NCBI GenBank assembly: GCA_002341165.1
Contig: DDNL01000009.1
Location: forward strand, 4,370 to 19,168
From: Shewanellaceae bacterium UBA2521
Lineage (GTDB): Bacteria > Pseudomonadota > Gammaproteobacteria > Enterobacterales > Shewanellaceae
DNA: 14,799 nt
Direction of reading: 5' to 3'
This document shows positions 2,088 to 14,365 of this stretch, piece by piece (within the stretch, counting starts at the first letter, position 1; the number at the start of each line of letters is the position of its first letter). The position numbers and the translations under genes are program-made. The notes below the pieces were generated by a model. The model did no database searches and had not been told where the DNA came from. It saw only the letters and a list, made by a program, of their open reading frames with translations.

Positions 2088-2148
2088 AGGATTCTTTTTA
2101 ATATAAATAGTCTTTGTTACTTATACTCCATTTTTGAGATTAATTTTT

Positions 2149-4440
2149 ATGATGTTTAAAAAAAATAACCTTGCAATCCTAGTAGGATTTACTTTTTGTA
2201 CACCAAAGCTCTTTGCTCAGGAAGTTCAGCAGTTAGATACTGCCCATATTCAAGCTGAACATGTTGAAGAAGAGGATGTTATTGCGCCTCAAAGCCTTGT
2301 GACATCGGACGCTATTGATCGTGATTTGATACAAGATAGTGTAGATCTCTTTAAACATGATTCTGGTGTTATCATTACAGAAGGATCACGAGGTGGTATT
2401 GCCTCTATTCAAGTTCGTGGTCTTGGTCAGGATCGAGTGAAGGTCATTATGGATGGACAGTCACAATCAACTTTTACTGTGAAGGGTGGTTCTGTCCCTT
2501 ATATTGATTCAAGTATGCAGCTTTCTGATCCTGAATTTATTAAACAAGCTAAAGCCATCAAGGGTGCGCAGTCGAGTCGTTATGGTTCTGGAGCTATGGC
2601 CGGTGTTGTTAAAATTGATACCAAAGATCCCGAAGACTTAACGAAAGGTAAACCTTTCGGTGGATACCTTAAATCTGGCTATCGATCCAAAGATGCATCC
2701 TTTAAGCAAACACTAGGGTTGGCGACAGAACATGAATCTTTTAGAAGTTTATTGATGCTATCTTATTTACAAGGTGAAGAATTACAGCGTTCAAGTGATT
2801 TCATCTATCAATCAAATGATACAAAGTATTTAGAAAAAAAGAACCTAAATATCCTAGCTAAAATGGCTTACCGTCTAAATGATAGCCATGATCTTAAAAC
2901 CTATTATCTTTCATCACATGGTGATAATGAATCTGACTTAATCCACACAACGAAAAAAGACTACCATTCTGACGACCAAAACAGAAGATACCAGATAGGT
3001 TTAAGTCACGATTGGAATCAAGACTTAACGGTGGCAGACCATATCAAAACACAAGTGACATGGTCAGAGAAAAAGAATCAACAAAAGACAAGCTGGCTTG
3101 AACTTGGATCTCAAGCTCAAGCTCAATCTCCACATGGGCATGTTCATGGGCATGGTGCAGGTGATCATGCACATGGTACAGCCGGTCATGCACATGGGCA
3201 TGTTCATGCACATGGTACAGGCGATCATGCACATGGTACAGCCGGTCATGCACATGGTGCAGGTGGTCATGCACATGGTGCGAATCAAGCAAAAACAGAT
3301 GTAAAAGATAAGTCTAAGCTTAAGGATTATCGCTATAAATCAACCCACCTTTCTATAAAAATCGATGCGGACAAGAAGAACGACGTTTTTGATACGCATT
3401 ATGGTGTAAGTTTTGATACCATCAAGAATGCGAATGATAATACCGAGTATACGACTGTTGACGGCAAAAGGTCTCAAAGGAATATTTTTTATACACCAGA
3501 AGTTAGCACAAACCTTTATGCGGGATACGTTTCAACGGATATTAAATTGTTCGAAGAACAGCTTATCGTGAAGCCATCGATAAGGTATGACTATGTTGGT
3601 ATCAAGCCCCAGAGAGCATCTTTATCAGCAGCAATCAACAAGAAAACGCCTGATTATACATTTTCGCATGTGAGTAAAGGGCTGGCTTTAGAGTGGTTGC
3701 CGACACAACAACACAAGCTTGTTTTATCTGTCAAGGAAGGTTTTAGAACTCCATCTTATCACGATTTATTTTTCCAATGGGAAAACCCGGCATATCAATA
3801 TGCAGTGGTACCTAGTGCTGATTTAAAAGAAGAGACCGCGATCAATTACGGTATAGATTATACCTATAACTCTTTGCAGTCTCGCACGTCGTTAAGGTTA
3901 TTCTACAGTGATTACGATGATTTTATTGATACAAATTCAACAAAAGAAGATGGTATATCTATACAACGTAATACCAATATTGCTAAAGCAACCATTAAAG
4001 GTATTGAGTTTTCTCATGTTGTTTATTGGCAAAGTGACTTAGCTACAGCAGAAGGATTTTCAACAGGTTTCTCTGCTCAATACTACAAAGGTAAAGATCA
4101 GCACGGAAATCGTCTCAGCAGCGTTTCGCCTTGGTCAATGAATTTAAATCTGAGCTATGATGGCGTAGGCAAGATGTGGGGTACAGGCCTTAAAACAACT
4201 TATACAGCGAAGTCAAGCAGTGTTAGTAAGAATAGCATTGAGATTCCAAGCGTAAAGATGATGGACTTTACCCTTTATTATAAGCCTATCGAGCGCATAA
4301 AATTGACGGCTGGAGTCTTCAATATTTTAGATCAAGAGGTTTACAAATGGACAGAAGTCAAAGATGCAAGTAAGCCTTTGACAGATAGAATGAAGCAAGC
4401 AGGGCGTAACTACGGTCTTTCTATTGCTTACCAATTTTAA
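2149..4440 (+). CDS. TonB-dependent outer-membrane receptor, heme/hemoglobin-receptor-like, with a His-rich insertion
   Basis: Start taken as ATG 2149, giving signal peptide MMFKKNNLAILVGFTFCTPKLFA/QEV. The plug motif is IQVRGLGQDRVKVIMDGQ. FRTPSYHDLFFQWENP resembles the FRAP...H...NPNL heme-receptor signature. The C-terminal barrel strand ends ...GLSIAYQF. Heme-gene context supports the call. Confidence 0.88.
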   Translation: MMFKKNNLAILVGFTFCTPKLFAQEVQQLDTAHIQAEHVEEEDVIAPQSLVTSDAIDRDLIQDSVDLFKHDSGVIITEGSRGGIASIQVRGLGQDRVKVIMDGQSQSTFTVKGGSVPYIDSSMQLSDPEFIKQAKAIKGAQSSRYGSGAMAGVVKIDTKDPEDLTKGKPFGGYLKSGYRSKDASFKQTLGLATEHESFRSLLMLSYLQGEELQRSSDFIYQSNDTKYLEKKNLNILAKMAYRLNDSHDLKTYYLSSHGDNESDLIHTTKKDYHSDDQNRRYQIGLSHDWNQDLTVADHIKTQVTWSEKKNQQKTSWLELGSQAQAQSPHGHVHGHGAGDHAHGTAGHAHGHVHAHGTGDHAHGTAGHAHGAGGHAHGANQAKTDVKDKSKLKDYRYKSTHLSIKIDADKKNDVFDTHYGVSFDTIKNANDNTEYTTVDGKRSQRNIFYTPEVSTNLYAGYVSTDIKLFEEQLIVKPSIRYDYVGIKPQRASLSAAINKKTPDYTFSHVSKGLALEWLPTQQHKLVLSVKEGFRTPSYHDLFFQWENPAYQYAVVPSADLKEETAINYGIDYTYNSLQSRTSLRLFYSDYDDFIDTNSTKEDGISIQRNTNIAKATIKGIEFSHVVYWQSDLATAEGFSTGFSAQYYKGKDQHGNRLSSVSPWSMNLNLSYDGVGKMWGTGLKTTYTAKSSSVSKNSIEIPSVKMMDFTLYYKPIERIKLTAGVFNILDQEVYKWTEVKDASKPLTDRMKQAGRNYGLSIAYQF
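3133..3279 (+). repeat. Coding His-rich low-complexity tract (17 His in 49 aa) with an internal ~60-nt duplication
   Basis: HGHVHGHGAGDHAHGTAGHAHGHVHAHGTGDHAHGTAGHAHGAGGHAHG. The string GATCATGCACATGGTACAGCCGGTCATGCACATGG occurs twice, about 60 nt apart (near 3162 and 3222). This tract generates three overlapping shadow ORFs in the track. Confidence 0.9.
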
Positions 4441-4517
4441 ATCAAATTGTTTTGTAAATTGATACCTGATTTTTGTGATATAAATCTTAAACATCATTTA
4501 CGAGCAAGACGCTAAAA

Positions 4518-4553
4518 AATAGCGAAGGTCAGGTTACCTTCGCTATTTTTTTT
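4518..4553 (+). terminator. Rho-independent terminator downstream of the TonB-dependent receptor gene
   Basis: Perfect 12-bp stem AATAGCGAAGGT (4518-4529) / ACCTTCGCTATT (4536-4547), 6-nt loop, then a T-run to 4553. An A-run precedes the stem, so it could act bidirectionally. Confidence 0.8.
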
Positions 4554-4781
4554 GTGCTACACCTATGATGATAGGTGCTGCTTTATTGACTTAATCGTTG
4601 CATATCTAAAAAATGTTGTACGATAATGCACTAAAATTTATATGATAAAAGTAAGCGGTATGCATAATATTTCTTCAACCAATTTATTTCGTATTATTAA
4701 TAAAGCACCTAATAAAGAGATACCCAACTAACATCACTCTATTTAAGTTCATTCAACGAAACCTTTTGACTAAATCATTAA

Positions 4782-4815
4782 ATGGATATCTTTGGAGAAA
4801 ATACAAGACATCCAT
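4782..4815. repeat. Dispersed hairpin-repeat family, site a: right-arm motif followed 8 nt later by left-arm motif
   Basis: AATCATTAAATGGATATCTTTGG (arm at 4782-4795), then CAAGACATCCAT (4804-4815). The same two motifs occur at 5157-5244 in the opposite order. The arms here pair with 11 Watson-Crick pairs, 1 mismatch and 1 bulge. Confidence 0.6.
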
Positions 4816-4844
4816 AGAGTTTAGTTACACCCCAAAAATATATA

Positions 4845-4897
4845 TTTTTTGTTTTTTTTGTTTTTATTTTGTTTTGTTTTTGTTTTTTTATTTTTTT
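4845..4897 (+). repeat. 53-nt T-rich tract (T4-T8 runs interrupted only by single G or A)
   Basis: TTTTTTGTTTTTTTTGTTTTTATTTTGTTTTGTTTTTGTTTTTTTATTTTTTT. It lies between the repeat element and the small GG-leader ORF. Confidence 0.85.
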
Positions 4898-4965
4898 ATG
4901 TTAAGTTAAATGCGCCATCAAAATATGGTTAAAAATAAATTTAAAAAAATAAAGAGGATGTTAAA

Positions 4966-5133
4966 ATGAAAGTCATTCAAAAAGAAAATTTATCTCAAGT
5001 TTCCGGTGGTTTTTTAGAGACTCTATTTGTCTCAACTTTTATTGCTACTGTCGTCAATATGATTACAGAAGATGAACCATCTGTAATTGTCGCTTATGAT
5101 AGCAGCAAAGAAGGTTGGATTAATAATAGATAG
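4966..5133 (+). CDS. Small secreted-peptide precursor with a double-glycine leader (class II bacteriocin/microcin-like), 55 aa
   Basis: Below the ORF-track size cutoff. AAGAGGA (4952-4958) lies 7 nt upstream of the ATG. Translation: MKVIQKENLSQVSGG/FLETLFVSTFIATVVNMITEDEPSVIVAYDSSKEGWINNR. The 15-aa leader aligns position-for-position with the colicin V leader MRTLTLNELDSVSGG, with hydrophobic residues at -12, -7 and -4 and VSGG at -4 to -1. Confidence 0.55.
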   Translation: MKVIQKENLSQVSGGFLETLFVSTFIATVVNMITEDEPSVIVAYDSSKEGWINNR

Positions 5134-5156
5134 TAAATCATTTACATACAATAAAA

Positions 5157-5244
5157 CCAAGACATCCATCTAAAAAAATCGATCTAAGTTTGACGTATTT
5201 TATGTAAAAACTTATTGAATTAATCATTTAATGGGTGTCTTTGG
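5157..5244. repeat. Dispersed hairpin-repeat family, site b: complete ~88-nt unit with terminal inverted arms
   Basis: CCAAGACATCCAT (5157-5169) pairs with ATGGGTGTCTTTGG (5231-5244): 12 Watson-Crick pairs, 1 T-G wobble and 1 bulge. The first ~40 nt align with site c (CAAGACATCCAYCT.....AAATYGATYTARGTTTGA). Confidence 0.6.
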
Positions 5245-5303
5245 TTTATTACTTTGATGATAATGATTACATTATTTTATGACCTGTGCATGCTATATAA
5301 AAA

Positions 5304-5328
5304 CTGAAGCTTGTTAAACAAGCTTCAG
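5304..5328. terminator. Terminator-like perfect palindrome at the truncated end of the IS3 remnant
   Basis: CTGAAGCTTGTT-A-AACAAGCTTCAG, a 12-bp perfect inverted repeat. On the minus strand it is followed by TTTTT. On the plus strand the tail is only TTATAT, so it is more convincing for minus-strand transcripts. Confidence 0.5.
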
Positions 5329-5362
5329 TTATATCGACGTATCAATAAAAATCATAAAAAAG

Positions 5363-6031
5363 GTGTTATGCTCTGTTCAGCCAGATAGTTTTGAAACGCT
5401 TTTGCTAAATATTGAGCACCTTGGTCGCTATGAAACAGCAAAGGCTCCGTCGGCTTACGCAGGTTGATGGCCATTCTTAAAGCTTCGAGCACCAAGTTGG
5501 TGTTTTGGGTAGATTAAATACGCCAGCCAATGACTCGGCGAGAATGCAAATCCGTCACCACCGCCAAATAGCACCAACCTTCTGCGGTTCGCAAGTAAGT
5601 GACATCGCCAGCCCAAGCTTGATTGACAGACTCAGGGTTAAAGCGTTGATTCAACTCTTTTTGAGCTTCTGTTTTGGGTTTAATGAGCGATAAGGGCTTT
5701 TTCGGCGCTGTTTGACCACCAAACCCAGCTTGTTCATGAGACTTCTGGTCTTATAACGGCCAATTTTAAAGCCCTCACGGCGCAAATGCTGCATCATTTG
5801 CCTTGAGCCTAAGCTTTGACGGCTGGCTTTAAAAAGCGCCTTACAACGCGATTCCAGTACTTTTTGGGCAACATAAGGCTGCGATTCTGGCTTCTTGAAC
5901 CAATCGTAAAAGGCGCTGCGACTTACTTTCAAGACCTGACACATCAGCAAAACCGGGTAAACCGCCTGATAAGTCTCAATGAAGCGGTACTTTACTTCAT
6001 TTCTTTGGCAAAAAATGCGCTGGCTTTTTTT
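5363..6031 (-). pseudogene. IS3-family transposase OrfB (rve/DDE integrase), pseudogene
   Basis: Own translation from the A7 site in the -1 frame gives ...KYRFIETYQAVYPVLLMCQVLKVSRSAFYDWFKKP...[10 protein letters not shown]. The frame then breaks at a T5 run (5698-5702; 6 would restore it). Reading resumes as [60 protein letters not shown], followed by an in-frame TAA at 5514-5516. It continues STQNTNLVLEALRMAINLRKPTEPLLFHSDQGAQYLAKAFQNYLAEQSIT and then homology ends. Confidence 0.8.
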
Positions 6032-6282
6032 AAGATTTCATGCTCTTGCTGCAAACGCTTATTTTCACGGCGTAAGCGCATTAATTCAGCGCGTTCTTCG
6101 GGTCTTAAAGCTCCTTCAGCCTGGTTTTTCTCGTACTTGACCTTCCAATTAGAAAGGATTTTTGCGGTCACGCCCACAGTTTCAGAAGCCTCTTTTAGGC
6201 TATAATTATGCTCTAAAACCAGTCTGACTGCTTTGTCTTTAAATTCCTGAGTATAGGTCCTATATTTGCGTTTTTCTGTCAT
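5992..6282 (-). CDS. IS3-family transposase OrfA (HTH)
   Basis: Start taken at ATG 6282-6280, with GAGGTG 4 nt upstream. MTEKRKYRTYTQEFKDKAVRLVLEHNYSLKEASETVGVTAKILSNWKVKYEK...LRRENKRLQQEHEILKKASAFFAKEMK is the canonical IS3/IS911 OrfA pattern, including the leucine-zipper end and the A7 frameshift window. Confidence 0.8.
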   Translation of the reverse strand: MTEKRKYRTYTQEFKDKAVRLVLEHNYSLKEASETVGVTAKILSNWKVKYEKNQAEGALRPEERAELMRLRRENKRLQQEHEILKKASAFFAKEMK

Positions 6283-6341
6283 GATCACCTCGGATTGAGT
6301 GTTTATTGTCCACCATTTAAATGTCCGGTTCAATTAGACCA

Positions 6342-6431
6342 TAATAGTCTTATATTTGCGTTTTTCTGTCATGATTACCTCGGGTTGAGTTTTTATTATC
6401 CACTATTTAAATGTCCGGTTCAATTAGACCA
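6342..6431 (-). mobile_element. Solo left end of a second, related IS3-family copy (IR, 5'UTR and about the first 9 orfA codons)
   Basis: 6351-6431 repeats 6261-6341 with 5 mismatches in 81 nt, at a 90-bp period. It includes the same TGGTCTAATTGAACCGG terminus (ending 6431) and ATGACAGAAAAACGCAAATAT. It stops where the full copy's terminus begins. Confidence 0.75.
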
Positions 6432-6444
6432 TAATATAGCCCAA

Positions 6445-6474
6445 AAACCTGTAAATACCCTTATTTACAGGTTT
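6445..6474. terminator. Terminator-like hairpin between the IS ends and the five-gene operon
   Basis: Perfect 12-bp stem AAACCTGTAAAT / ATTTACAGGTTT with 6-nt loop ACCCTT. The T-run is longer on the minus strand (AGGTTTTTGG) than on the plus strand (GGTTTAG). Confidence 0.45.
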
Positions 6475-6518
6475 AGTAAGATATTGTGTGATGTAAATCG
6501 AGGATTAGTTATTATTAT

Positions 6519-6547
6519 ATGACTTATAGATACACTTAACATAAAAT
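6519..6547 (+). promoter_or_regulatory. Candidate sigma70-type promoter for the five-gene operon
   Basis: ATGACT (6519-6524), a 17-nt spacer, then TAAAAT (6542-6547), about 40 nt upstream of ATG 6588. Hexamer matching in AT-rich DNA is weak evidence. Confidence 0.25.
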
Positions 6548-6587
6548 ACCGCTTAAGTTGTTGTTTTTAAACGAAAAAGAGGTCGTT

Positions 6588-7682
6588 ATGGTGAGTTTTC
6601 TCCGTATTTATAGTGTTTTGGGATTAATGGTAGTAACTTCGGTATTTGCTGAAACTAAAGAGCAGCAAACGAAGCGAACTCTATTACCTATGCACCAATA
6701 TTTATCTCAAGATGAATTATGGTTATCAGCTAAAGATGACATGCATGATAATGATATTAAAACCGTTGCAGTTTATTTCAATGGGCGCACTACACAGGAT
6801 GTCACTCAAGGTCAAGTTGATACGTTTCAATATGCCATTGAAAATAAAATCCAAAATACGGGTTTTACTGTTCGAACATGTATTGAATGTACCAAACAAC
6901 GCGTCCATTTAAGTAAGAAAAAAATAAAATACAAAACCGGTATAGAAAACAACCAAGAACTGCGTTCTTTAGGTAAAAATATTAACGTCGATGCTTTTTT
7001 AGTCTGGCGTTTATCTAAAAACTTCGATGGCTATGATTTAAATATGAAGATTATTAATGCACACACAAATAAGGTTGTGTGGATTCGTAGTTTTCAAGCA
7101 GATACAGCAGCTAAAGAAATCAAAGAGATTAAATATCCTTCACAATGGGGAGTTGCTATTGGTCACTTAGGTTTAAAAGGTGAAGCAAATATTCCTTTCA
7201 ATCCAAATATTGATGGTAGTGGTCAGTGGAAAGATCGTTTTAGCACGGTTCGCGATATCAGTATTCGTTACTACACGCGTCACAAGCCAGGTGAAAATCT
7301 TCATTACGCTATTATCGGTAACTTTTTTATGAGCGTTCCAGAAGCAGACCAAACTGCTAAGGACTTGAAAGGTCTGGGCAAAGCTGACTTTTCTGTACAA
7401 GGCGTTGGTCTTGAAGGACGTGTTTTATACAACTTTTCTCAGGACACTTTTCTAAATCCAAGTGCCTATGTTGGTGTTGGTATTTCCAGTGTAAATGAAA
7501 GACAAAAAATAAGTGCACGAACAGGGTTTGAATTTGCCTTCATGGAAAATGCGTTTGTTGATGTTGGCCTCATTTATATTGACCCTGTTGAGTACGAGTT
7601 CAAAGAGAACAATTGGTCGCAAGATAAAGCAAAATTTGCTGACTCAATCGGTACAGATTTTACCATTGGTATAAGGTTTTAA
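6588..7682 (+). CDS. Secreted protein, 364 aa: FlgO/CsgG/LpoB-like alpha/beta N-domain plus putative C-terminal outer-membrane beta-barrel-like domain
   Basis: Start at ATG 6588, with AAAGAGG 5 nt upstream. Signal peptide MVSFLRIYSVLGLMVVTSVFA/ETK. The N-domain pattern is TVAVYFNG...TFQYAIENKIQNTGFTVRTC...LGKNINVDAFLVWRLSKNFDGYDLNMKIINAHTNKVVW. This resembles the AV.PF.N ... L...G.F.VV.R ... LGADa.l.G.v......y.l...lid..tg.vvW fold family. The C-terminal half has alternating-hydrophobic strands and ends ...DFTIGIRF with a terminal Phe. Confidence 0.5.
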   Translation: MVSFLRIYSVLGLMVVTSVFAETKEQQTKRTLLPMHQYLSQDELWLSAKDDMHDNDIKTVAVYFNGRTTQDVTQGQVDTFQYAIENKIQNTGFTVRTCIECTKQRVHLSKKKIKYKTGIENNQELRSLGKNINVDAFLVWRLSKNFDGYDLNMKIINAHTNKVVWIRSFQADTAAKEIKEIKYPSQWGVAIGHLGLKGEANIPFNPNIDGSGQWKDRFSTVRDISIRYYTRHKPGENLHYAIIGNFFMSVPEADQTAKDLKGLGKADFSVQGVGLEGRVLYNFSQDTFLNPSAYVGVGISSVNERQKISARTGFEFAFMENAFVDVGLIYIDPVEYEFKENNWSQDKAKFADSIGTDFTIGIRF

Positions 7683-11363: not shown

Positions 11364-11878
11364 GGCTCCGTTGCAAAAATTTACTTCGTTTTGCTTAAAT
11401 CATTGCCATCTTTACTAAAAAGAGAATTGCCTTTCTATGAGACGCACTTCTCCTAAGATGCCTTGATTTCGAAGCCATACATTCATCTGTTTCTTTCGAA
11501 ACATTCGCATCACTTCAAATCCTTTTAAGGTTGCAAAGGCTGTCTTCATGGATTGAAAACCTCGGGTAGGCTTAATCATTCTCTTTAGCTTACCATGATC
11601 CGACTCAATCCTATTATTCAAATATTTGACGTGCCTGTGCTGAATGATTTGACGACAGACCCCCTCTTTTTTAGAGCTGATAGAGCAGGTGCATAAGCTC
11701 GATCTTTATCGGATTCAAAACGCGGATTTAATCGCTTAGCTTGGTAGATAGAAGGGTGTGCATCAATAATACCTTGAGCAATCTCTTTCACTTTAAAGGG
11801 TTGATAGGGATGTTGCTTTAAAATTTGGAAAATTTGATCGGTTTGACTTAACTTTGACATATCAAGCTTATGCATCAA
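11364..11878 (-). mobile_element. IS6-family (IS26-like) insertion sequence remnant: one terminal IR plus a frameshifted 3' part of the transposase gene
   Basis: GGCTCCGTTGCAAA (11364-11377) matches the IS26 terminal repeat GGCACTGTTGCAAA at 12/14, in the orientation expected downstream of a minus-strand tnp. The other end is missing, and the M66 gene starts at 12002. Confidence 0.7.
11415..11725 (-). pseudogene. IS6-family DDE transposase, C-terminal fragment with a frameshift
   Basis: ...NPRFESDKDRAYAPALSALKK (frame 1) then EGVCRQIIQHRHVKYLNNRIESDHGKLKRMIKPTRGFQSMKTAFATLKGFEVMRMFRKKQ...GEVRLIERQF (frame 2). This parallels remembered Tnp26: PRFINTDKAPAYGRALALLKREGRCPSDVEHRQIKYRNNVIECDHGKLKRII..LGFKSMKTAYATIKGIEVMRALRKGQ...GEMRLVSRVF. 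The frame switches at the homopolymer block 11660-11672. The first ~50 codons of track ORF 11618-11878 are not clearly IS6-like. Confidence 0.7.
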
Positions 11879-12001: not shown

Positions 12002-14365
12002 ATGTTAAATACTAAGAATTATATATATTTTATTTTTCTTTTTATATTAGGCTGTGCAGACAGTTCTGAATTTAATATTATTGAAGAAATGCAAGGACAA
12101 CCTGCTCAAGGAGGACAACCTGATCAAGGAGGACAACCTGATCAAGGAGGACAACCTGACCAAGGTGGACAACCTGATCAAGGAGGACAACCTGACCAAG
12201 GTGGACAACCTGACCAAGGAGGACAACCTGACCAAGGAGGACAACCTGACCAAGGAGGACAACCTGACCAAGGAGGGCAACCTGACCAAGGAGGGCAACC
12301 TGACCAAGGAGGGCAACCTGACCAAGGAGGAAGCAACTCGAACCCTCAAAAATTTATTTTTTTCAACCAAAACAATCTTGAAAGTGATACCACAGGAGCT
12401 TTAAGTGGTACCGTGCACTTTGCTCAAAGCACAATCATGCCATCTAAAAATAAAATAAAAGATGATATCCAACCGCACCTTGTTTCTCAGCGTAAAGCTT
12501 TAGTTCTATTTAAGTCTCCAGATTTAGCAGAAGATAAAAACTTAAAAATGAGTATCTATGATAAAAATAATACACTTATTTATCAAAGTAATATGAACCA
12601 TCCCTCGAAATTACCTGCTATTGAGGGGGAATCTATAGAACCTATTTCTTTCAAAAATTTTGAACCTAATCAAACTCTAAATCTCAATACTCAAGCCCAA
12701 TTAAATGATCTTAAAGAAGATCTTTCGGGACAAAGATTAAGCTATTTCTTTAATACATTTGACTTTATTCATGTTCAAACCCAAGATGGAATACATATCG
12801 ATGACTTTCATCTACCTCTTCTCGCTAAAGGTTCTGAAAAGCATATACGTTTTTCATCTAGAGCTGGCTATGATTCAACCATTTACTTTTCAGGCTTAAA
12901 AAGATCCCTTAAAACGAATTTTGTCTTCGATTTTAAGTTCCAGAATCAAACTTGGTACATGAAAAGTCATATGAATCGTATAAAATACGGTTATTTTTGG
13001 AGTGCCCCCTTACCTAAGCAACATGTAAAACCTGGTATAAGTATTCGATTTACGCAAAATGGAGAAAATGGTCTGCTCAGTGCTCATGACATCAAAGTAG
13101 GTCCTGAAATCGAGTTACTTTTACACACCATTGACTTAGGGTTTCTGACTCCTTATCGAGATGAGTTTGACTTTCAAAAAAAAGATAAAAATCATATTGA
13201 GTATTATCAAACTATTCCCATAACAAAACTCATTGTGTCACGATATGAACCTCAACACTTTAAGACTGTAGGCTTACCCGATGGAACAGTCTACAACAGT
13301 AAAAGTGCAACCGACGGCGGTGTCTATACAGGTGATATGCGAAAAATTGGAAAAATTCTTATATCACATGGTATTAATTTAGCTAATTATGGTCTGACTT
13401 CATCTCATCCAACGAGTGAAAGTCCGCACAAATATATGGCTAATCAGATTACAATTCATAACTCTCAAGGTATCTATACAGATAAAGACTCAAAAGCATC
13501 AAAAAAAGTGATTCATGGCTTATCTGGAGGCAATGGTATGCTTACCTTGTCCGATTCTGAAGGTAATGAATTCAGTCATGAAATGGGGCATGCACTAAGT
13601 TTAGGACATTACCCAGGTGGCTTTGAAAGAAGTGTGCATCGCCCAGCACATATGATCAACTCAACTTGGGGGTGGGATAGTGTTCGTAATGAATTTACAC
13701 CTAATTTCGAGCATTATCCTACGAATAAACCTACCAAATATGATGGAGGCGCGAAAGATAAAGATAAAGGGAAGACTGTACAGCCTTTTCATGGACATAG
13801 TTTTGGCAAAGACTCTATGGGAGATGGAAGTCCACTCTATTCGAATCATTACACTTTATTTACTCCCTATACCATGAATAAAATGCAAAAATTTTTGGAG
13901 CGAACACCTCGCTTTGATAAGAATTCATCCACGGGCTTTTCTGTATGGGATGCTAATAAACAGGAATATAGAGAGGCTGCTAATAACGTATCTTCTTCAC
14001 GTAGAAAAGACTTCGGTGTACCTGTAGTCACTTTAGTGGGATATTATGATCCAACTAATACCATTAAATCCTTTGCCTATCCTGCTTTATACGGTAGCTA
14101 TGGTCATACTTATTATAGCTTCCCTAAATGGTTCAATAGCAAATGTCAGCTCACCGTCAAAAACGCTCGTAGAAAAAAAGTAACATTCTTCTTAAATGAC
14201 CGTGTCATTTTAAGAAAAAATATGAATAAATATCATGTCAATATTGCGCAATCATTTAAACCTACGAGTTACGATATAAAATGTCATGGTAAATTTGTTT
14301 TGCCTTCGTTTGCTATTAAACCTAAGAAATTTAATTTAAAAACCCATATTGTAGAAAGCCCTTAA
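12002..14365 (+). CDS. M66-family zinc metalloprotease lipoprotein (StcE/TagA-like mucinase family), 787 aa
   Basis: Lipoprotein signal MLNTKNYIYFIFLFILG-C (lipobox ILGC). The motif NEFSHEMGHALSLGHYPGGFERSVHRPAHMINSTWGWD parallels StcE NEFSHELGHNYGLGHYVDGFKGSVHRSAENNNSTWGWD (HExxHxxxGH). Further StcE-like blocks are SSTGFS.W, FGVPVVTLVGYYDP, YPALYGSYG, CQLTV and MNKYHVNI. Confidence 0.85.
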   Translation: MLNTKNYIYFIFLFILGCADSSEFNIIEEMQGQPAQGGQPDQGGQPDQGGQPDQGGQPDQGGQPDQGGQPDQGGQPDQGGQPDQGGQPDQGGQPDQGGQPDQGGQPDQGGSNSNPQKFIFFNQNNLESDTTGALSGTVHFAQSTIMPSKNKIKDDIQPHLVSQRKALVLFKSPDLAEDKNLKMSIYDKNNTLIYQSNMNHPSKLPAIEGESIEPISFKNFEPNQTLNLNTQAQLNDLKEDLSGQRLSYFFNTFDFIHVQTQDGIHIDDFHLPLLAKGSEKHIRFSSRAGYDSTIYFSGLKRSLKTNFVFDFKFQNQTWYMKSHMNRIKYGYFWSAPLPKQHVKPGISIRFTQNGENGLLSAHDIKVGPEIELLLHTIDLGFLTPYRDEFDFQKKDKNHIEYYQTIPITKLIVSRYEPQHFKTVGLPDGTVYNSKSATDGGVYTGDMRKIGKILISHGINLANYGLTSSHPTSESPHKYMANQITIHNSQGIYTDKDSKASKKVIHGLSGGNGMLTLSDSEGNEFSHEMGHALSLGHYPGGFERSVHRPAHMINSTWGWDSVRNEFTPNFEHYPTNKPTKYDGGAKDKDKGKTVQPFHGHSFGKDSMGDGSPLYSNHYTLFTPYTMNKMQKFLERTPRFDKNSSTGFSVWDANKQEYREAANNVSSSRRKDFGVPVVTLVGYYDPTNTIKSFAYPALYGSYGHTYYSFPKWFNSKCQLTVKNARRKKVTFFLNDRVILRKNMNKYHVNIAQSFKPTSYDIKCHGKFVLPSFAIKPKKFNLKTHIVESP
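12092..12331 (+). repeat. 18-bp in-frame tandem repeat encoding QGQPAQ-(GGQPDQ)x12-GG
   Basis: Twelve full units lie between 12110 and 12325, at an exact 18-nt period. They differ only at synonymous positions (GAT/GAC, GGA/GGT/GGG), with variants clustered along the array. The array produces two long shadow ORFs in the track. Confidence 0.95.

Follow-up and report, generated by a model that had tools for sequence, protein, structure and literature searches.

The window is a stretch of 14,799 nt within contig C64 of the Shewanellaceae bacterium UBA2521 genome, which comprises 2.28 Mb in 95 contigs, is roughly 96% complete and has a GC content of about 38%. The host is Gram-negative. Besides a haem-type ABC importer, a TonB-dependent receptor, a FliG/MotAB-like operon and an M66 (StcE-like) protease, the window carries an isolated small intergenic ORF, here called P0001, in the following setting:

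4774 to 4815, no strand: short-loop variant of a palindromic element, 5' of P0001, with direct repeats D3 and arm matches
4838 to 4900, plus strand: T-rich tract (TTTTG-type repeats), between the upstream hairpin and P0001
4951 to 4958, plus strand: Shine-Dalgarno sequence AAAGAGGA, read off the sequence, with 8 nt from its GAGG core to the ATG
4966 to 5133, plus strand: P0001 ORF, intact, with an ATG start, 55 codons and a TAG stop
4966 to 5010, plus strand: double-glycine leader of 15 codons (M K V I Q K E N L S Q V S G G), predicted to be cleaved after G15
5011 to 5133, plus strand: predicted exported core, 40 residues plus stop, with a hydrophobic N-half and an acidic C-half
5153 to 5246, no strand: palindromic element copy of ~75-90 nt directly 3' of P0001, folding at -27.3 kcal/mol (z -3.9)
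5352 to 6333, minus strand: fragmented IS3-family transposase remnants with HTH_Tnp_1 and HTH_21 matches, and weak rve fragments in a metagenome copy

An earlier note on this DNA described a 55-codon ORF preceded by a good Shine-Dalgarno sequence; ATG, frame and ribosome-binding site are indeed all intact, and the factual statements of the note about the sequence agree with the letters throughout. P0001 also behaves as a gene in a coding test that set a three-periodic Markov model, trained on the long ORFs of the genome, against an intergenic model. It scores +0.161 per codon, while the other five frames are negative. Only 3.6% of 604 similar-sized intergenic ORFs score as high or higher, and among the 56-codon N-termini of real genes the P0001 value stands at the 38th percentile. 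Gene callers in several sources predict the exact 55-aa product. A σ70 promoter scan upstream returned sites no more numerous than in shuffled sequence, none of them convincing, an Rfam scan of 4300-6700 returned nothing relevant, and a search for RNA runs listed none.

The exact P0001 protein is present on at least 8 metagenome contigs (Tara, JGI, Logan). The five copies that were compared are identical in DNA over the ORF and for up to 1.5 kb upstream and 1.2 kb downstream, so they are uninformative about selection. One further Logan contig, of 197 nt, has 1 difference.

The hairpins on either side of P0001 belong to a dispersed family of palindromic elements with arms AAGACAYCCA / TGGRTGTCTT and a variable loop, of which at least 8 strict copies align in the host genome; apart from those beside P0001, host sites lie at C12:25087, C18:20738, C39:13763, C64:142, C78:10203, C80:2128 and C82:37. 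The 22-nt direct repeats that flank the gene were considered as cassette-specific ends, an idea that was rejected since the repeats are the arms of this family. The element is not treated here as part of the peptide system. The copy 3' of P0001 may terminate or stabilise the mRNA.

The first 15 residues of P0001 follow, as the earlier note had read them, the double-glycine leader rule position by position, with I at -12, L at -7, V at -4 and G at both -2 and -1, beginning at Met. They agree with the consensus for leaders of PCAT substrates, which comprises hydrophobic residues at -12, -7 and -4, Gly at -2, Gly, Ala or Ser at -1, and a length of about 15-20 residues. The leader ends in VSGG, presumably in common with that of colicin V. 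The TIGR01847 model (bacteriocin_sig) aligns with P0001 end to end, over residues 1-15 of 15, at 14.0 bits (E 0.064), which narrowly misses the curated cut-off of 15.7 bits; in a six-frame search of the whole 2.28-Mb genome with this model, P0001 is the sole match (E 0.39). The PF10439 (Bacteriocin_IIc) model gives 12.4 bits, in the leader only, and does not reach its gathering score of 27.1 bits. Motif 2, a broad pattern from a published signal-sequence screen (PMC12219008), accommodates the leader as well. A degenerate DNA pattern of the leader found no match in 400 genomes of the order and none in metagenome_contigs.

A separate line of evidence comes from the relatives. Orthologues of the host PCAT, described below, are 44-52% identical to it in related genera, and in five loci (L032, L033, L034, L036 and L039) genes for peptides with a 15-residue GG leader lie directly beside these exporters. 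From six such leaders, and no others, an independent profile was built and scored, full length and without gaps, over the 1,912,759 15-mers of the six-frame host genome; local HMMER with the six-leader model was uninformative, as it returned partial local matches, and full-length ungapped scoring was used instead. P0001 ranks first of all 1,912,759 positions at 21.4 bits, with the runner-up at 17.8. The maximum in the reversed sequence is 13.5 bits, and 100 residue shuffles give a mean maximum of 13.8, with 21.4 reached in 2 of the 100. The resulting p of about 0.02 is modest taken alone, and takes no account of the ATG, ribosome-binding site and intergenic position, or of the frame that stays open past the cut site. 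The exporter-adjacent peptides share with P0001 both the leader length and the pattern M-[KR]-x-[IL]...[VI]-x-G-G. They differ in that they adjoin an exporter and mostly have hydrophobic cores rich in Gly and Ala, whereas P0001 is dispersed and acidic.

Two other loci beside PCAT orthologues encode peptides of apparently another kind. At L035 12521-12999(-), in relative G007, three tandem genes have longer leaders ending in ISGG and 20-residue cores rich in Cys, Glu and Phe, and the gene at L040 5044-5178(-), in relative G008, has a short core that contains Cys. Both loci resemble sources of modified-peptide precursors more than of plain microcins.

The large ORFs of the window, examined by Pfam scan or through precomputed Pfam hits, contain no C39 domain, HlyD protein or modification enzyme, in keeping with the earlier statement that no exporter or modification enzyme is visible there. 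The note had proposed that the genome be searched for a C39-peptidase ABC transporter and a HlyD partner, and both are present on contig C84. A Peptidase_C39 search of the host genome returned three ABC proteins, only one of which, at C84:3094-5211 (127.6 bits), is catalytically intact, with its Gln, Cys and His motifs present. This PCAT aligns over its full length with the structures of PCAT1 (4ry2) and ComA. Its partner is:

C84:5284-6558: HlyD-type adaptor, adjoining the PCAT (PCAT and adaptor together, C84:3094-6558)

A TolC homologue lies on contig C48. P0001, the PCAT with its adaptor, and TolC are thus on different contigs of an assembly in 95 contigs, and neither a cargo gene nor a leader-bearing remnant was found beside the C84 exporter. 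The other two C39-like ABC proteins, both on C88, lack the catalytic Cys and flank a HlyD gene. RTX-toxin exporters that have a C39-like domain show the same arrangement. The C88 locus (C88:5012-10615, minus strand) is a type I secretion locus in RtxB-RtxD-RtxE style and differs from the bacteriocin-type exporter of C84.

A homologous leader was found in a sister genome, the one same-genus genome covered, MAG GCA_016779685.1 (Shewanellaceae in the NCBI annotation), which is 62% complete. It carries two tandem GG-leader ORFs, P0003 and P0002, both called as genes by NCBI (L006 49-490(-), the same as L041 9706-10147(+)). The P0002 leader is identical to that of P0001 at 10 of 15 residues, and the first core residue is also the same. 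Two of the identical leader residues are encoded by different synonymous codons, and AAAGAGG lies upstream of P0002 as the equivalent of the P0001 ribosome-binding site. Directly after the cut site the two peptides cease to be related: the P0002 core, 65 aa once cleaved, is glycine-rich and hydrophobic, with a sub-threshold match to Bacteriocin_IIc (PF10439, E 0.007). A shared leader joined to an unrelated core is what is usually seen in cassettes whose export tag is retained while the cargo is exchanged. The P0003 leader resembles that of P0001 only loosely. Like P0001, P0002 and P0003 are away from any exporter in view, and no C39 domain was found in this 62%-complete genome. The two genes lie at the end of a contig, where a cytochrome b561/YceI pair precedes them.

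Together, the genome-wide rank of the leader, the homologous leader in the sister genome, the exporter-adjacent leaders of the relatives and the single intact set of PCAT, HlyD and TolC in the host support the assignment of the P0001 leader, predicted from sequence, to the double-glycine type processed by C39-peptidase ABC exporters, as the earlier note had suggested. That note had staked its reading on a homologue or a cognate exporter being present somewhere in the genome or its relatives, and both an exporter and a leader homologue have been found. The homologue search that it proposed succeeded for the leader, through P0002 (10/15), and failed for the core, which has no homologue in three very large searches.

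P0001 is therefore probably a double-glycine-leader peptide that is cleaved and exported in trans by the C84 PCAT. The pairing is reached by elimination rather than linkage: the genome has one complete exporter for GG peptides, this exporter has no cargo in cis, and P0001 is the best-matching cargo. In the proposed sequence of events, the hydrophobic residues at -12, -7 and -4 would dock in the C39 domain, the peptidase would cut after Gly15, and the 40-residue acidic peptide of 4.5 kDa would leave in one step through PCAT, adaptor and TolC.

The strongest competitor, which we consider unlikely although worth some weight, is a decayed or silent remnant: a real bacteriocin-type cassette that has lost its partners (the immunity gene, the linkage to an exporter and perhaps the promoter) and is no longer expressed or useful. 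The truncated IS3 fragments directly downstream fit a decaying island, and the gene sits in a low-GC segment bracketed by copies of the palindromic repeat. The search for an immunity gene points the same way. No credible candidate is present among the ORFs in 4441-5660 (~500 bp either side) that reach 20 aa, and hydrophobic frames there arise only where the poly-T tract is translated; this bears out the earlier remark that no immunity gene is visible, and neither a clear promoter nor a core homologue was found either. A remnant, however, is hard to reconcile with an intact frame, ATG and strong Shine-Dalgarno sequence, with coding potential like that of a gene, and with the retention of an intact PCAT that has no adjacent cargo and otherwise no evident substrate.

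It is much less probable that P0001 is a small protein of the inner membrane, such as a type I toxin-like or accessory peptide, with a coincidental GG and a transmembrane helix at residues 16-34, and that it undergoes neither cleavage nor export. An isolated small intergenic ORF flanked by stable hairpins would suit this reading. A 19-residue Kyte-Doolittle window peaks at 1.64 in the N-half of the core, and a single-sequence AlphaFold model shows residues 6-34 as one continuous helix followed by a disordered tail (mean pLDDT 70, moderate confidence). Yet the hydrophobicity is borderline, and the putative span contains Glu, Ser, Thr and Asn. Moreover, the leader tops the genome for a profile built independently from PCAT cargos, and is homologous to that of P0002, a canonical bacteriocin-like peptide.

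Least probable of all is a chance ORF in AT-rich intergenic DNA that mimics a leader: AT-rich DNA does favour translations rich in M, K and I/V, and the profile score was equalled in 2 of the 100 shuffles, but chance would also have to produce an ATG at exactly -15, a well-spaced Shine-Dalgarno sequence, a frame that stays open for 40 codons past the cut site, a coding score above those of the other five frames, and a leader homologous to one in the sister genome, synonymous differences included.

If P0001 is indeed an exported peptide, its core is an uncommon one. The computed composition of the core confirms the description of an unusual mature peptide with a hydrophobic N-half, net acidic, and with no Cys and one Gly: it has 6 acidic and 2 basic residues, a mass of 4537 Da (4.5 kDa), a pI of 4.08 and a GRAVY of 0.26. 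The modelled helix is neutral as to a membrane-active peptide, which it neither supports nor excludes. Among the language-model neighbours of P0001, those with a family name belong to Gram-positive double-glycine families (PF10439, PF03047), which is a lead only.

Searches with the core gave no relative. A word-indexed search of 5.8 billion proteins returned only the query itself, and a scan of genome_contigs found no relative of the core. HMMER against 1.84 billion representatives gave a single match, a 5483-aa Calx-beta repeat protein. This relationship was rejected, as the score is a sum over 25 near-identical repeats, single stretches of which show 9-11 identities over 22-25 residues, with an E of about 3e-4 that holds for one pairwise comparison only; the Pfam Calx-beta model itself does not match P0001. 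A RaxX-like sulfated peptide was also considered, given a Tyr beside an Asp, and was dropped because the genome has no Sulfotransfer_3 gene.

As to what the released peptide would do, a class II microcin-like antagonist is the most likely single role, although a doubtful one. Roughly equal in likelihood is a non-toxic secreted or signalling peptide, since no immunity gene accompanies P0001. As far as export goes, P0001 is like the precursor of a class II microcin; strict membership in the class is not established. In common with these microcins (MccV/CvaC with CvaA-CvaB-TolC; PMC12219008, PMC9746304), it is a small precursor with a 15-residue double-glycine signal, encoded by a Gram-negative host with a PCAT, a HlyD-type adaptor and TolC, and a core without similarity to other members is usual within the class. 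The differences lie in the surroundings and in the core. A class II microcin gene is near its exporter and has an adjacent small membrane immunity gene, whereas P0001 is on a different contig from the exporter in this fragmented assembly, with no immunity gene seen nearby. Furthermore, class II microcins are usually 5-10 kDa and often Gly/Ala-rich and hydrophobic, while the P0001 core, at 40 aa and 4.5 kDa and not Gly/Ala-rich, is below the usual size and atypical in composition.

The Gram-positive peptides of ComA/BlpA-type PCATs (ComC, BlpC and class II bacteriocins; PF10439, PF03047) share with P0001 the logic of the leader and the peptidase-ABC exporter. Some of them are reported to be signals without toxicity, and some to be encoded at a distance from the transporter (10.1101/783472). 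Their envelope is different, however, and does not require an adaptor or TolC; in addition, no two-component sensor is seen beside P0001.

P0001 is not the only leader-bearing ORF of the host. The independent profile reaches 13 bits or more at 11 positions of the genome, where shuffles predict 0.88. Five further candidates, P0005 to P0009, are located as follows:

C85:3587-3757, minus strand: further candidate
C67:8377-8490, minus strand: further candidate
C62:18771-18926, plus strand: further candidate
C62:19122-19271, plus strand: further candidate
C78:10357-10518, plus strand: further candidate

All five start with ATG in the gaps between larger genes, in most cases behind a ribosome-binding site, and carry 15-residue leaders of the double-glycine type, one of which ends in AG rather than GG. 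Other sources call them as genes with exactly the same starts. Their cores are unrelated, and one is a 22-residue peptide rich in Arg, Lys and Ser. Each of P0005 to P0009 is a singleton cluster, and none of the six, P0001 included, has a homologue clustering with it at 90% identity or more. The C78 candidate resembles P0001 in being flanked on both sides by palindromic elements; the other four are not.

The C84 PCAT is a candidate exporter of the C62 pair, and under the in-trans reading preferred here it would be shared by at least six dispersed leader-bearing small genes, P0001 among them. A broader proposal, which we put forward only tentatively and think rather unlikely, is that in this genome-reduced marine Shewanellaceae bacterium one PCAT serves at least six unlinked peptides whose cores are unrelated and unlike bacteriocins, and that together they form a secreted repertoire for signalling or for interaction with a host or partner, not for killing. 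Were this so, the double-glycine leader would act as a portable export tag. The search for an immunity gene that bears on this proposal covered the P0001 locus only.

Recent work argues that class II microcin-like peptides greatly exceed, in spread and in diversity, the handful characterised so far (PMC12219008). Of those tested, nearly all come from Enterobacteriaceae and are encoded beside exporter and immunity genes, while P0001 comes from an uncultured oceanic bacterium. Because P0001 is apparently unlinked from its exporter, without an immunity gene nearby and atypical in its acidic core, it would be overlooked by pipelines that depend on linkage or on similarity of the core. By itself P0001 changes nothing known about how such systems work; together with the other dispersed candidates, it makes up a defined group of putative cargos of one exporter that can be put to the test.

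Elsewhere in the window, two small minus-strand ORFs at 11415-11878 have no Pfam match. The M66 (StcE/TagA-like) metalloprotease, at 12002-14365 on the plus strand, is a lipoprotein with about 15 tandem GGQPDQ repeats after the signal peptide. The TonB-dependent receptor, at 2134-4440 on the plus strand, has an insert of roughly 50 residues rich in His, Gly and Ala (HGH.HGHG / AGHAHG units) at about 3130-3300, between plug and barrel, which may be a metal- or haem-binding loop.
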